Shown in pieces: positions 28,567 through 34,500 of a DNA stretch of 64,000 bases. Source of the stretch: Plasmodiophora brassicae (lineage: Eukaryota). Numbering within the stretch: position 1 is the stretch's first letter; each line of letters starts with the position of its first letter. A program made the position numbers and the translations under genes. The notes under the pieces were generated by a model that was given only the letters and a program-made list of their open reading frames with translations, was not told where the DNA came from and ran no database searches. The stretch spans positions 620,001 to 684,000 of the forward strand of contig CP145416.1 in NCBI GenBank assembly GCA_036867785.1. The letters are read 5' to 3'.

Positions 28567-31500
28567 ATGGAGGTCGCCGCGTCTTCGATGACGGTGCCCG
28601 TGCCAGCGGCACTACCTTCGGGGAAGCCGGTATTTGGGCACGTCGTCGTTATAAGGCCCGATGGCCGTGATGGTACGCACCTTGCGGGTCTCCTCTCGCA
28701 AACGATTGATTATGTTCGTCGGCAGGCGCGCGATTCCCAATCACGAAACGAGAAATTACGTTTGGACGGTTCGTGCTGGAACTGCCGATGCATGACGTTA
28801 TGTTCTCCTCCTGACCCATGTGCGCTCGAACAGTGACTTGAGCTGTGACATCCGTATTCAGTTGCGAAGCGTGTCCAAGTCTCATGCCAGGCTGAATGTC
28901 GATGAGAACGGGCGCGCCTGGCTCCACAACGTTAATGAGGCTACCGAAACAATACTTAATGGCAATGCAATTATGAACCCGACGGTTGTCGGACACAACA
29001 ATGTCTTCGTTATCAGCCAACGGTCGTTCCGTCTCGAATACCGTCAGTTACTTTCATTTCGATTTTCTCATCGACCGCCTTTCTTAATTTGGGTATCCAG
29101 CTGAAAACAAAATCTCTGTTGCCGCGCCATCGCTCCCGTCCAAGCCAGGACACGTTGGGGTCCGGTCGGAGAATGCTGGGGATCAGGTAACAATATTCTG
29201 TTGTCCGTCGGTGTAGGAACGTTGACGCAGAGCCTGTAGAATGCGCCCATAATGCTTGCGCAACAGAAGCCAAGCAAGAGGCGGTCGTCAGTAACACCGC
29301 TGAATGCTTCGGCCACAGCAGCTGTTTCCAATGCAGCTTTGACTGGATGTGACAGCCAGAGCCTTATCTCGGAAACGCCCAGGCGGTCACGTCGTCTGTC
29401 TGGGAAAGTGACTCCTGTTCCTTTTCCAACCCCAGTTCGCAAATCCTTCCGTTCGATGCCGTTACCTGCATGCAATCTTGATGCAAGTGCCAGCTCCGTG
29501 TCCGTGCAGATGTCTGTTGAACCTGTCTCGTCTGAGGTGGCTACCGCTGCTACCGATCTACAACTTGCAGGTTCTGCTGAACCCAGTTCGAATGTCCCAG
29601 CAACACCATCTTCGACAGGTGCTGACGGCGCTCTTGCAGCAGCGTCATCGGACCCGTTGGCGTTGCCCGTTATTGGATCGTCTCAAATGCCCACATCCCA
29701 ACCGCCTGATAATACAAGCGCGGCATCGGCATTGCCTGACTCTCGCGCTGAAGGCGTTCCCCCCATTGTGACCGCAATGGATATCGACCCTGTGCCTTCA
29801 CGTATTACAGCAGCTGCCGAAATCTTGAACACGCCCTCCACCCGCTCATCGCGAAAATCCACTTCCAAACCGTGCACACCAGCAATTTCAGCGGCAGCAC
29901 TTCCTTCTCAAGAAAAAGGTACCGCGCTACCAACCCCAATGGCTGTCGAATTGCAACCGTCAGCGAGCGCAATCGCCGAAACCACTGCCAACGCAGCCTC
30001 GACGGAGACTTCGCAGATCAGAAGGTCTTCGCGGAAGTCTATCGCCAATATTCCTGTTACTGGCCAACAAGTTTGTGCGCCGCCTGCCCATTCCGCTTCC
30101 AGTTTTCCTTCTAATGCTGGCACAACCAGTGTGCCCAGCACACCACTGTTCTCTCCTGTACGACGAACGAAATCTGCCCCCAAGCCTTTTCCCGCTTCCG
30201 TTCGAAAGATTTTGAAAGAGCGGATCGGCGGGCACAATGCGGAGCCAACAAAGCGAGGCTCCTCTGGTACGTTGGAGTCCGGTCTGCGATTTGTTTAGGA
30301 ATATTAATTTGTTCCCGTTGTTTTCAGGCATCGATGTTGTCTCAGAGGCTCCGGAAGAGAAGCCGCTCCAGAACAACCCTTCACGCGATGGCATCGTTTC
30401 ACAAGCATCGTCTCATATCGTTTCATCGGAGGCGAAAGATGACAGGACGGGTCGCCCATCGGAAGCTCATCGAGATGCCAGCTCTGTTCAGCCGCCTGCG
30501 CTGGTGGAATCATTGGCATCTCCAAGTCGAAATGGTGATGATGCTCCTCACGGCGGCGACCAAGAAAATGATACTCTTGCACAGGTTCGTCTACCGCTCT
30601 AACTCCCTAGTTATAACTTTATAACATGACTGTTCAGAATAAGGGAGAATCAATCGATCGGAGGAGTGGCGAGGCTCTTATCTTGCCGACTAGCGCATCT
30701 GCTCCGGGGTTATCAGTTGATCTGCACGAGCAGCGACCTGTTCAGTCGCCAGAATCCACGATACGAGAAGCCATTGTCCCGAAGGAGTGTGTCCTTGGAC
30801 CAGCCACTATTCCAGTACCTTCAGCCGAGCAGGCGAAGCATGCCACGTCTGATGATCAGGCGACTGCGGCAGATGTTCATGTCCCGCCTCCGGTTGAAAC
30901 ACGTGAACCATCATGTGGCAGCGTCCTAGACCAGAGCGCCGCCTCGATGTTCTCTCGTTCCATATTGACCTCGAGATCGATGGACCGATGTTCTGAGAGC
31001 CCGCTGCCTTCTGGCGCTTCTTCCCGTCTGGATTCCTTCAAGTCTTTGACCAGCCCGATCAGGTCCGCCATTAGGTCAGGGGCATACACGTTGCGGCCAG
31101 TATCAACCGCGACTCCTGTTGTCCTCCAGTCGGAGTCGGTTGCCGAACAGACTGGAAGCGATAATGCTCCCGAATCGGAATCAGTTGCTAAGCAGGCTGA
31201 AGCCGGTGATGATTCGGACCCAAAAGGCTCGTCTCTTCAGAAATCGCTGTCGACACCGGTCCGCAACGCCATCCGCGAGAAGAATTATTCATTGCGTCCC
31301 GTGCGGCTTGAGACGATTCCTGAAACTGAGCCGCCTCCTGGCAATGTCACATGCCTTTCTACACCAATCCGCAAGGACATTCATGAGGGAAACTACTTGC
31401 TGCGACCGGTATCTGACGTGTCGGGAGCTTCTGCTGTGGACGCCTCGGCTATTGCTGCGACTATTGGAGCTCCAGTATCTGATATTTCGAAGTCTTTTGA

Positions 31501-34500
31501 CCAATCGCATGCATCTGCTCCCGGCGTATCACCGTCTGGGATCGAGTTTGGCAGTTCTGCCCCACTTGTGACGTCGTTGACGACCCCGATCCGCTCTGCG
31601 ATCAAATCGAAAAATTACGCTTTGCGTCCGGTTGCGCGACAACCTTGCCTCGACAACGACCAGACGGCCGCTGTGAACCATCGCCCTATCAAATCTTTGA
31701 CAACACCAATTCGGACTGCAATCAAAGCGAAGGAGTACAGTCTTCGTTCGGTTTCGGATTCCATTGTTACTGAGTCGTTGAATAATGCTCCTGAGCTGTC
31801 AAGTGTGGCGTCTGAGCTGTCCAATGTTGCACCTGGCGAATTCAGAAGCCTCGCCACTCCAATCCGGACGGATATTCGTGAGAAAAACTACTGTCTTCGA
31901 TCCACATCCAATGCGCCGGCGTCCCCTGATTCGGTACCTATGCCTTCTGCCTCCGGTATTGATGTTCCCAAGACTTCTGACGCTTGTCAAGCATCAGACT
32001 CGACGATGCAGCAGGGTGCGAACGATGCTGTCGACGACTCGAGTCGCACTGGAATCAAGTCGGAGGACAACTGTTTGCATTCTGTGCAACAACCTCCTCC
32101 TTGCGACTTCCATCACCCTAGTGTCCCTGAGCAGAACCTTGTCAAATCTATGTCCACTCCGGTTCGATCCGCGATCAAATCGAAAGACTATTCCCTGCGT
32201 CCAGTGCAGCAGTCATCCTGCCTTGAGAGCGAAGCACCGCGTGCCGTTGAACAACGCCATATCAAGTCTCTGACGACGCCGATCCGGACAGCCATCAAAA
32301 CTAGAGCGTTCAGTTTGCGCTCGACGTCAGGATTAAATGCGGACGCTCCTGAGGCGGGTCCTGCGTCTGCTTCAGAGCAGGTCACAGCAATCGACAACGT
32401 CGCCAAGGGCTCCTGCGACGATCACGTCATCTTCGCCCATATAGCGGTTCCGGAAACACAGCCGTTAGCAGGCGAGGTTTTCAACGAGGAACAAGACGGA
32501 TCGATGGCTGATGCAGATGCAATCTCGGCGGCACCAGACCGTGCGCATGTTCCTTCCGAAGGTCCTTCAGTTTTACAGTCGAACGCACCGTCTGCTTCCA
32601 TTCGTGCGAGACTTGCTTCGGACGTTACTTGCACGCCTATACCAGAATCTGGACGTCCTCAATCTGCGGACGATGGACTTGCACCTGCACTTACGTTATT
32701 CCAGCCGAATGTCGAAGAGGTCGACGTCCAGACAAACGAGGCCAACATTACAATGGAAAAGGATGACGACGCCATGCAGACTGATCCGCTTCCTACTGTG
32801 CCGAACCCAATGCCGGTCGGCTCCATCACTGACGGCAGTAATCTGCACTCTGATGATAAGCCTTGTCCCGCTGTGACGCCGCCTGATCATTCTGCTGCAA
32901 ATGTCCCGTCATGCGATTCTGATGTGCAGAGTGCCCACTGTGCTTCTGAACATGTCCATACTCAGGAGTGTCTCAAACCGCGACCGATCCTTGATCACCC
33001 ACCTTCTCCCGCCCCCCTTCGGAAGTCTCTCAATACCCCGATTCGCCATAGCATCCGTTCTCGGGACTATTCTCTGCGCAGCGTTGGCCTGCGTCCCGTT
33101 AGGGAGGTCGAAGAAGCGTCATCCATCGATCCTAACCAGGTTGATTTCGACCTGACTAACAGTGACGGGGCTGACAACCCTCATGTCGCTGCACCGATCG
33201 CCTCTGCGTTCCATCGGTCACTGTCGACTCCTATTCTCAATGATATTCAAACTAAGCGGTACGCGCTTCGTTCTGTGTCCGACACCTTACCTGCCGAAGC
33301 GGATGATGAAGCGGAACGGCTGTATCCGGCACTGAGTACACCGCTGACAACGTTGTTTGCAAAGCCGCAGACGCCCTCCCGATCCTCTGAACAACACCAG
33401 TTACCACGTCGTGTGCTGTCAACACCTCTCAAGGCTGAACTCGTCCAGGCGTTTTGGCGCCGCAGCCTGTCGGGGCTGTCAAACGTGTTCCAGTCTCCGC
33501 TCTCTGCTCGTTCTTCTGCCACCCCTGGGCCGGCCGATTCTTCGGCAGAAGATCTGTCTGCCATAGAGCAGCCATCGCCTTCAATTTCCATCGACCAGGC
33601 AAACACAGAGACGATTCGCGAGTTCGTCAAAGACGCTGTCGACGACGCGTTTAGACACGGTGGCGAACAGGCTGATGCAGTTCGATGCGCTCTGAGCCAG
33701 CACTTCGGAGCCTCTATTGAAGACGTGCCATCGGTCTTGCAGCAGTCCCTTGCAGCCGGAATCTGTACGCTACAGGCTGATTTTCAGGGTGCTGCCGGTT
33801 TCGAGGAAACGGCGCTCCCCGAGATAACTGCTCTGCTTTCAACTCCTCGTCGTTCCGCAGGACAGGTTCTTGTTTCATCGCTTTACCAAGGCTTGTACGA
33901 TGTCGTACATGCACCAGCCGACATCCCAGTGGCGTCTCCTACTGATTCGGCCTCCGTTTTCAACGGCATCACGCGACTTCTGATGACTCCTGGGGCTAAT
34001 CGGCCTGTTTCCGATTGTTTCGAGTTTTCTCCTGTGGCGTTCAACCTCCCTGGCGAAGGTGAAAACGCGGCCGTTCGAACGGAGCGGGAACCAGAATTGT
34101 CATCTACCTGTGACCTTAGTGGCACCGCTACTTCACTATTTTCTGCAGTAACGTTCCAGACGGATGCAGCGACTTGTATTCTTCCTGGCGAGTTTACAAC
34201 CACTAACAGCCTGCCACCTGTGGCATTTGATCGGGACCCGTTTGTCGACGCTGATCAGGCGCAATCCTTAGACAATCTCGGTTCGGTTGAGGAGCATTCC
34301 TCAAAGGCCACCATTGAACCCCAGCCGGAATTGACACCTGAACTTTCGACTCGCCATCGGACGCGAAAGTCTCGTGTTCAGGCGCAAGACATAGACGAGT
34401 CTGGTTCCGTTGAGCATCATCCGGCAAGGTCTGTCGGAGACCCGCAAGAACAATCGACGCCTGAAACTGCGGCTCGCGGTCGAACGCGAAGGACTCGTGG

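Follow-up and report, generated by a model that had tools for sequence, protein, structure and literature searches.

Ten Thr-Pro repeat units in a Ki-67-like gene of Plasmodiophora brassicae: a probable family motif and a possible G-actin site

Introduction

What do the repeats of Ki-67 do? Their function is not known (preprint 10.64898/2026.06.18.733134), and here, we come at the question from a single gene of the protist Plasmodiophora brassicae, which lies in a stretch of 64,000 nucleotides (GenBank assembly GCA_036867785.1, contig CP145416.1, positions 620,001 to 684,000 of the forward strand; hereafter “the window,” in which all positions are counted). The gene encodes a long protein with an FHA domain at its start, ten copies of a 21-residue unit in its body, and an Arg-rich tail. 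An earlier reading of the letters alone, which we call the sequence-only reading, took the units to be WH2-like actin-binding motifs, each fused to a Thr-Pro site of the kind used by cyclin-dependent kinases (CDKs). We argue that the units are very probably one form of a repeat shared by Ki-67-like proteins across distant lineages, and we offer, far more tentatively, the idea that they are sites for monomeric actin.

The Gene and Its Product

The body of the gene is one open frame of 1,645 codons on the forward strand (30626–35563), whose exon, 4.9 kb long, is the last of seven in a model with six GT..AG introns of 53–65 nucleotides and a product of 2,217 amino acids (the upstream exons were read by eye and assembled by script). 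Over positions 28300–35800, the contigs of four out of four public runs (from four studies) skip all six modelled introns exactly and differ in no other way; one contig (X1) spans 28503–35577, and another (X2) stops at 35639, near which we place the poly(A) site, and then continues as a run of A. That these runs are RNA is our guess, and we take them for transcripts because their contigs lack introns and one ends in poly(A), which is what expression rests on here. Since the contigs skip all six introns, a single message carries the FHA domain together with the ten units and the tail. A public copy of the exon product (30626–35560), P0004, is 98% identical; its 25 differing residues lie upstream of residue 126 or past residue 963, which leaves none in the 838 residues that hold the units and their spacers; the difference-free stretch could be a shared haplotype block, the result of a mosaic assembly, or a mark of strong constraint.

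The FHA domain occupies residues ~20–120 of the spliced product, where the signature residues G-R, S-x-x-H, and N-G are visible. Its exon matches Pfam FHA (PF00498; E 5.8e-10), and at E ≤ 0.01 its only matches in the PDB are the human Ki-67 FHA entries 2aff and 1r21 (E 1.3e-10), so that the Ki-67-type FHA that the sequence-only reading had placed on this gene is indeed there, and on the same spliced message as the units. Among the array-bearing relatives described below, FHA domains are 33–45% identical to this one (33–38% in the sponge Ki-67-like proteins and 43–45% in P0020 and P0024).

Past the FHA domain, the protein is of low complexity: Ser, Ala, and Pro make up 34.7% of the 2,217 residues, and two families of internal repeats are present. 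No Pfam family is found in the 1,645-residue exon at E ≤ 1, and hence no match to the vertebrate Ki-67 repeat (PF08065). The PP1_bind family (PF15276) has no match in exon 5 or 7 at E ≤ 1, and the pattern [RK]-x(0,1)-[VI]-{P}-[FW], run over the product, finds REITF only, within the FHA fold. There are 47 Ser/Thr-Pro sites (one per 47 residues), 17 of them of the full form [ST]-P-x-[KR], a density that falls between the limits of one per 8 and one per 128 residues quoted in the survey of homologues (preprint 10.64898/2026.06.18.733134). The product is acidic overall (isoelectric point, or pI, 5.76) and basic at its ends only, so the strongly basic pI of Ki-67-like proteins is not seen here; the Drosophila homologue of Ki-67 is likewise negatively charged (preprint 10.64898/2026.06.18.733134).

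In the tail, a second repeat, TPE-x-[AS]-x-R-x-R-x-R-[RK]-x-R, closes units of ~40 amino acids (exact copies at 34454, 34682, and 34805; loose copies at 34331 and 34571), and RRTR/RTRS clusters continue from there to the stop codon. Thr-Pro adjoins the Arg cluster in this repeat as it adjoins the helix in the 21-residue units. By eye, similar Arg clusters stand in the tails of the relatives P0007, P0010, P0013, P0018, and P0024. Because the C-terminal region of Ki-67 is basic and the relatives carry such clusters, we infer that the tail would be the end that binds chromatin or DNA. Between unit 10 and the tail (33596–33910, forward strand), three to five helices are predicted, the first three with a predicted local distance difference test score (pLDDT) of ~70. 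This is the sole part of the big exon that may fold, and its product aligns weakly, at 21% identity, with the middle of the array protein P0007; AlphaFold2, run from a single sequence over the central piece 33539–34066 (176 amino acids), gives low-confidence helices (mean pLDDT 54.5).

On FHA subtype and architecture, then, we file the gene with strong confidence in the Ki-67 family. The filing carries with it two features of Ki-67-like proteins that this one is without, the PP1-binding motif and the basic pI.

Ten Old Units

Translation and a pattern scan yield exactly ten 21-residue units at 31040–33277 (forward strand), with the consensus [KRT]S[LM]x[ST]P[IV]RxxIxxxx[YF]xLR[PS][VT]. The alignment of the ten shows no variation at P, I, L, and R and no more than one exception each at S, L, T, R, and Y; that is, four invariant and five near-invariant positions among 21. 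The count agrees with that of the sequence-only reading, every example peptide of which is present, and the CDK-type site that it saw in each unit takes the full form [ST]-P-x-R in nine of the ten (unit 10 has TPIL). The spacers, which it called unconserved, are nine mutually dissimilar linkers of 46, 15, 53, 19, 30, 79, 19, 232, and 43 amino acids, of which the shortest (15–19) leave three close pairs of units (2–3, 4–5, and 7–8). A profile of the ten units, run over all six frames of the window, finds no further copy. Two degenerate copies that had also been named are visible by eye as half units, one keeping only the second half of the motif and the other only the first, and neither reaches the reporting threshold of the profile.

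The array is far above what chance would give: a relaxed pattern has 10 matches in the real protein, and among 20,000 residue shuffles, 4 have a match at all, with a maximum of one. The copies are old rather than young, kept by selection on the protein: the units share a mean DNA identity of just 56% and use the same codon at only 174 of 550 positions with identical residues. Tandem Repeats Finder reports no DNA repeat in the unit region.

A Repeat Shared by Ki-67-Like Proteins

The unit profile, searched against 1.84 billion representative proteins at E ≤ 1e-3, retrieves 21, the window's own among them, and each of the other 20 has 3–20 matched stretches in a tandem array. Over these 20, Pfam finds an FHA domain in 6, the Ki-67/RepoMan PP1_bind domain in 8, a SAP domain in 4, and either FHA or PP1_bind in 11; several of the others are fragments. 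P0010 and P0013 come from two sponges, Corticium candelabrum (XP_062509487.1) and Oscarella lobularis (XP_065828196.1), and bear the NCBI name “proliferation marker protein Ki-67-like”; P0020 is from the choanoflagellate Mylnosiga fluctuans. A search that starts from the Oscarella array collects 47 proteins, with PP1_bind in 43 and FHA in 5. Word-index protein searches with the 1,645-residue exon and with a 42-residue alignment of units return only the copy P0004, long proteins perhaps crowding out relatives, and the Protein Atlas has no usable match for the window's repeat region or the Oscarella array. The sequence-only reading, which had proposed a search of other protists with a repeat profile, had missed that the motif is not peculiar to this protein; Ki-67-like proteins of sponges, a choanoflagellate, and other eukaryotes have it as well.

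What do all of these units have in common? We counted 753 units, distinct within each protein, in 67 proteins (near-duplicates and the window's own copy included). The phospho-acceptor is Thr in 742 (98.5%) and Ser in the other 11, and position −2 holds L, M, I, or V in 716 (95%); the R or K at +3 was set by the search pattern. Just ahead of the fixed Ile, 735 units have E, A, Q, D, G, or S, and a tail of the form L-[KR]-x-[VTAS] follows at +6 from Ile in 464 units, at +7 in 17, and nowhere in 272. The core common to all lineages is therefore [LM]-x-T-P-hydrophobic-[RK]-x-x-I, and the tail is lineage specific. We define the repeat family by at least three copies of [LM]-x-T-P-[ILVMF]-[RK]-x-x-[ILV] in a protein that has a Ki-67-type FHA, PP1_bind, or both; nine of the ten window units fit this core, and unit 10 has L at the [RK] position. 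We are highly confident, on these alignments, that the ten units are the local form of an ancient tandem repeat shared by Ki-67-like proteins.

One might nevertheless suppose that the units have no discrete partner and are stickers of a disordered, surfactant-like coat on the chromosome or nucleolus, with phosphorylation altering charge patterning and phase behavior, as has been proposed for the repeats of vertebrate Ki-67. It has been argued that what Ki-67 homologues keep is CDK sites and bulk biophysical features, not sequence (preprint 10.64898/2026.06.18.733134); charge blocks driven by phosphorylation and phase separation of Ki-67 repeats are cited in a passage of PMC11290319, and our protein, with its 47 Ser/Thr-Pro sites and 1,645 residues free of any Pfam domain, would suit such a coat. 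However, nine invariant or nearly invariant positions out of 21, spelled in scrambled codons, are typical of a binding motif and not of bulk composition, and the same core survives from the window protist to sponges. The protein is also acidic, unlike the basic proteins that underlie the sticker model, which for this gene strikes us as quite unlikely.

In the relatives, the arrays begin directly past the PP1_bind domain, and the PP1-binding segment itself ends in N-T-P-[LV]-[KR]-[KR]-G (residues 52–82 of P0015 compared with the PDB chains 5j28_C of Ki-67 and 5inb_B of RepoMan), which looks like the opening of a unit; duplication of that end may be how the array grew. Could the units then be extra, CDK-controlled contacts for PP1, made of duplicated ends of the Ki-67/RepoMan segment? 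The position and the resemblance speak for it, as do T412 and T419 of RepoMan, which are mitotic phospho-sites in its PP1-binding segment (PMC4032110). Still, the window protein has the units with no match to PP1_bind and no PP1 motif outside the FHA fold, and the resemblance spans ~5 residues only, so that we regard PP1 contacts as improbable. In P0015, a unit that lacks Thr-Pro stands in register with the Thr-Pro units; by eye, P0006 and P0020 hold units of this kind, with tails of the form L-N-[KA]-V.

The Thr-Pro Site and Its Possible Readers

A CDK site in its optimal form reads S/T-P-x-K/R, and Cks1 accepts no phosphorylated residue but Thr (PMC12062237). It is likely, judging from the motif, that CDKs phosphorylate the Thr of the units. 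Because Ser is nearly absent at the acceptor, the site argues for use by a reader or an eraser that is specific for Thr.

Might that be all? A plain alternative to actin is that the units are phospho-Thr modules for the cell-cycle phosphorylation machinery, in which the helix merely tunes the site: they would prime Cks1 for processive multisite CDK phosphorylation or be read by the FHA domain of the same molecule or a neighboring one so as to cross-link the protein in mitosis, and PP2A-B55 would rapidly take the phosphate off again. In favor of this account, the positions that change least between lineages are the Thr (742 of 753) and the L/M/I/V at −2 (716 of 753), and the tail is what varies. 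Cks1 sites favor a hydrophobic residue at −2; FHA domains read phospho-Thr, and there is one on the same chain as the units. The Cks1 pocket is specific for phospho-Thr, and PP2A-Cdc55/B55 counters Thr phosphorylation (PMC12062237); Ki-67 is hyperphosphorylated by CDK1, which PP2A-B55 opposes (PMC11290319). What this account leaves unexplained is the rest of the unit—the Ile that never varies, the hydrophobic position four residues ahead of it, the conserved Tyr, and the L-R-x-V tail—together with the G-x-x-L-[KR]-x-T tail found in 62% of the relatives' units and the confident actin pose described below. As the whole explanation, we think it on balance unlikely, and it does not conflict with actin binding; both could hold.

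Three narrower readings of the same residues were set aside. An RxL cyclin-docking site in the leading K-S-L has no hydrophobic residue at +1 or +2 (by eye). A Polo-box S-pT-P site would fit the window, where Ser or Thr precedes the acceptor in 8 of 10 units, but not the relatives, where A or P does so in 527 of 753. The register does not fit a B55 motif of the p107 type.

Are the Units WH2-Type Actin Sites?

The canonical WH2 tail has its Leu at +6 from the key Ile. PMC8102491 describes WH2 as an amphipathic helix that lies in the barbed-end cleft of actin and carries a key Ile, the position before which is restricted to A, S, Q, D, or E; a tail of the LKKV type comes after the helix. The window units have WH2-like traits: the residue before the invariant Ile is A in six units, D in three, and S in one; position −4 is I or V; and L-R-x-[VT] follows, with the Leu of the L-R-[PS]-[VT] tail at +7 from Ile in 10 of 10 units. 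In one relative, P0015, which bears PP1_bind, a unit without Thr-Pro (residues 206–229) passes the Pfam WH2 model, at 31.3 bits against a gathering score of 23.1, and two consecutive units of the same protein align with the tandem WH2 of N-WASP (chain 3m3n_W; E 0.094).

We docked unit 1 with ESMFold2 on an actin, P0030, which is an intact open reading frame (ORF) of 376 residues from a metagenome locus, fetched with a degenerate pattern of a conserved actin motif. The score is 0.84 in three of three runs, and the best of three controls reaches 0.01; the tool's own mark is reached by 51 of 78 solved complexes and by 2 of 108 mismatched pairs. The runs share at least 94% of their contacts, and the pLDDT of the partner is at least 76. 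On the actin, the contacts are (P0030 numbering) 24–29, 144, 147–149, 168–170, 342, 345–347, 349–350, 352–353, and 356, which are the barbed-end cleft between subdomains 1 and 3, as described for WH2 in a passage of PMC8102491, and the acidic loop. On the peptide side, contact is tightest for two Ile residues, the invariant one and that at −4, and for the tail's Leu and Arg. For unit 1, the pose in the subdomain 1/3 cleft that the sequence-only reading had proposed to look for is thus predicted (0.84 against 0.01).

A good deal weighs against actin, and we set it out together. The Pfam WH2 model (PF02205) matches 0 of 10 units even at E ≤ 10, and nothing in the whole exon at E ≤ 1 (HMMER's filters discard most matches above E ~0.1), so that the profile test proposed along with the WH2 idea comes out negative. 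The unit profile finds no WH2 chain among PDB sequences at E ≤ 10, where its only matches are three at chance level (E 0.4–0.6; RNF8 and a designed coiled coil); there is no known WH2 protein among its 21 protein matches; and a precomputed WH2 match occurs in 0 of the 47 proteins of the Oscarella-array search. Just 1 of 20 relatives passes Pfam WH2, and the unit through which it does so is atypical; among nine scanned at E ≤ 10, a further two reach 8.5 and 6.9 bits. The tail in the window is one residue farther from Ile than the usual WH2 spacing. Of the 753 units counted, 272 lack an L-[KR]-x-[VT] tail altogether, so that the best-kept part of the unit is the CDK site and not the actin-type tail, and the 98.5% Thr and 95% L/M/I/V at −2, which actin binding does not need, point to readers of phospho-Thr. 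The docking pass may be partly memory, since WH2–actin complexes have been solved; it covers unit 1 alone, which shares a Gly at one position with just one other unit, the tool made no use of the alignments, and the two peptide controls are unrelated sequences rather than other amphipathic helices. In the literature searched, we found no paper that links Ki-67 to WH2 or to nuclear actin.

The term “WH2-like” therefore survives in part: the helix, the key Ile, a tail that stands one residue off, and the predicted docking of unit 1 speak for it, and the failure of the Pfam model on all ten units, together with a best-kept part that consists of the Thr-Pro and the first helix turns, speaks against it. 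That the units really bind G-actin is, as we read the models, a possibility that falls somewhat short of even.

A Proposed Mechanism

How might such a protein work? The gene product consists of an N-terminal Ki-67-type FHA domain, a long low-complexity body with the repeat domain, and an Arg-rich tail. In each unit, the first half is an optimal CDK site, [LM]-x-T-P-hydrophobic-R, whose Thr-Pro opens a two-turn amphipathic helix, P-I-R-x-A-I, and the second half is the tail, Y-x-L-R-[PS]-[VT]. Helix and tail would bind monomeric actin as a WH2-type site, with the two Ile residues seated at the barbed end, in the cleft that separates subdomains 1 and 3, and the tail's Leu-Arg resting on the acidic loop of subdomain 1. 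Phosphorylation by CDK of the Thr at the helix start would gate the binding, on or off, through the cell cycle, and the protein would thereby tether up to 10 actin monomers to whatever the tail and the FHA domain hold. We put forward the units as CDK-gated WH2-type G-actin sites as our leading reading, but tentatively, with doubt having the slight upper hand. For such a protein we infer the phosphorylation and its effect, a place in the nucleus or on chromosomes, and whatever it might do to filaments; for nucleation of actin by the array, which the sequence-only reading had suggested, the support is the three close doublets with their linkers of 15–19 amino acids, and nothing beyond them.

One can go a step further, onto ground where we think the idea unlikely to hold in full: the ancestral protein of the Ki-67 type could have been a chromatin-tethered, CDK-gated, multivalent binder of G-actin, whose arrays were later replaced in vertebrates by repeats of 122 residues. 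Such ancestral arrays, of up to ~25 WH2-like units, would take up or let go of actin monomers during division at the surface of the chromosome or nucleolus, with the Thr-Pro that opens each helix as the switch, and might even seed filaments.

Features of the Locus and Neighboring Genes

The features of the gene are collected in Table 1. Next to it, on the reverse strand at 35703–36989, a convergent ORF of 428 amino acids combines a signal-like start with blocks rich in Cys, a stalk rich in Pro and Thr, and a single hydrophobic span, and has no Pfam family at E ≤ 0.001; ~65 nucleotides separate its end from the place where the Ki-67-like transcript is polyadenylated. Elsewhere in the window are ordinary eukaryotic genes (5825–6811, 11124–12371, 22339–22947, 37292–38809, and 58635–61823): NOC3p-like, WD40, a CCDC113/CCDC96 coiled coil (a family of cilium proteins), an ERG4/ERG24 sterol reductase, and a heavy-metal P-type ATPase. 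None of the ten window ORFs that were scanned is related to actin.

Table 1. Features of the Ki-67-like gene, in window positions
Feature	Position	Strand	Basis and remarks
Exon 1, start codon and first FHA strand (...GHVVVIRPDGRD)	28567..28672	+	Gene model; junction 28672/28726 (53 nt skipped, GT..AG) in 4/4 runs
Exon 2, 43-nt FHA micro-exon (GARFPITKREITFG)	28726..28768	+	Gene model and contigs; flanking skips of 53 and 65 nt, both GT..AG
Exon 3, core of Ki-67-type FHA domain	28834..29042	+	Pfam, PDB matches, gene model
Exon 4	29101..29186	+	Gene model and contigs
Exon 5, Ser/Ala/Pro-rich, 11 S/T-P sites, no PP1-binding motif	29240..30266	+	Gene model, contigs, Pfam, pattern scan
Loose unit-like site FPTPVRKSF in exon 5	29429	+	One such site
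Exon 6	30328..30584	+	Gene model and contigs
Exon 7, 1,641 codons and stop; ten units, central helical stretch, Arg-rich tail	30638..35563	+	Gene model and contigs
Unit 1, KSLTSPIRSAIRSGAYTLRPV	31040..31102	+	Pattern, alignment, profile; docked on actin
Unit 2	31241..31303	+	Pattern, alignment, profile
Unit 3	31349..31411	+	Pattern, alignment, profile; linker to unit 2, 15 aa
Unit 4	31571..31633	+	Pattern, alignment, profile
Unit 5	31691..31753	+	Pattern, alignment, profile; linker to unit 4, 19 aa
Unit 6	31844..31906	+	Pattern, alignment, profile
Degenerate half unit, second half only, GIKSEDNCLHSV	32051..32086	+	By eye; under profile reporting threshold
Unit 7	32144..32206	+	Pattern, alignment, profile
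Unit 8	32264..32326	+	Pattern, alignment, profile; linker to unit 7, 19 aa
Unit 9	33023..33085	+	Pattern, alignment, profile
Unit 10	33215..33277	+	Pattern, alignment, profile; TPIL, no basic residue at +3
Degenerate unit, first half only, RVLSTPLKAEL...	33410..33475	+	By eye; under profile reporting threshold
Arg-rich C-terminal tail	34331..35560	+	By sequence; second repeat and RxTR/RRTR clusters
nt, nucleotides; aa, amino acids.

Comparison with Known Systems

That Ki-67-like proteins exist outside the vertebrates is already known: the preprint covers homologues in sponges and several protists, describes disordered parts without alignable homology, and reports repeats, found with RADAR, that are specific to each species only (preprint 10.64898/2026.06.18.733134). 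The parts of it to which we limit the statement give no motif that crosses species, and it has 0 occurrences of “WH2” or “actin.” In the literature searched, we found neither the cross-lineage motif nor its fixed Thr-Pro site nor its WH2-like form. A 21-residue profile from one protist gene retrieves sponge and choanoflagellate Ki-67-like proteins through the repeat itself, and therefore at least part of the family shares an alignable linear motif with a fixed CDK Thr-Pro.

How close is this protein to the Ki-67 of vertebrates (MKI67)? The two are alike in having an N-terminal FHA domain of the same subtype, great length with no other domains, internal repeats, many Ser/Thr-Pro sites, and an Arg-rich C-terminal end. 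They are unlike in that the window protein has no match to the Ki-67 repeat and no PP1-binding motif, has a pI of 5.76 where vertebrate Ki-67 is strongly basic, and carries units of 21 residues, in contrast to the 122 of the human repeats (preprint 10.64898/2026.06.18.733134). The sponge proteins of Oscarella lobularis and Corticium candelabrum share with it the FHA subtype, the repeat core [LM]-x-T-P-hydrophobic-[RK]-x-x-I in several copies, and Arg/Lys clusters in the tail; however, their arrays run head to tail with a period of 21 residues, end each unit in G-x-x-L-[KR]-x-T-[KR]-K, and come with PP1_bind, whereas the window's units are scattered (linkers of 15–232 residues), end in Y-x-L-R-[PS]-[VT] with one extra residue, and come without it.

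The likeness to WH2 proteins, including those with tandem WH2 (N-WASP, Spire, and Cobl), lies in an amphipathic helix with a key Ile after A, D, or S, an L-R-x-V tail, several copies per chain, a predicted place for unit 1 in the barbed-end cleft, and three unit pairs with linkers of 15–19 residues. Against this stand the failure of all 10 units on the Pfam model, the extra residue between helix and tail, the CDK Thr-Pro site at the start of the unit, and a host that is a Ki-67-type FHA protein and not a regulator of the cytoskeleton. For phosphorylation as a control on a WH2 helix, there is a precedent in S554 of Las17, whose phosphorylation alters affinity for G-actin (reported in a passage of PMC8102491). 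In Las17/WASP, the site is a single Ser beside the key Ile; in the window, every unit has its own, a Thr-Pro that opens the helix and precedes the Ile by six residues.

The RPEL repeats of Phactr and MRTF, too, are short helices present in several copies on a regulatory protein, and the cleft of G-actin that they occupy is the same; Phactr is a partner of PP1. Their motif is different, and the likeness is one of layout: the partnership of Phactr with PP1 parallels the layout of the relatives here, in which PP1_bind and the array stand together.

The shared motif makes both halves of the question—a CDK, Cks1, or B55 role for the Thr and binding of G-actin by the helix—directly testable with peptides. 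If actin binding is real, a family of chromosome-coating proteins would have an unexpected link to the actin system, and if the ancestral protein was such a binder, the repeats of Ki-67 would have their first concrete ligand, and the perichromosomal layer would be tied to actin. If actin binding is false, the motif still marks the family and indicates a conserved partner.

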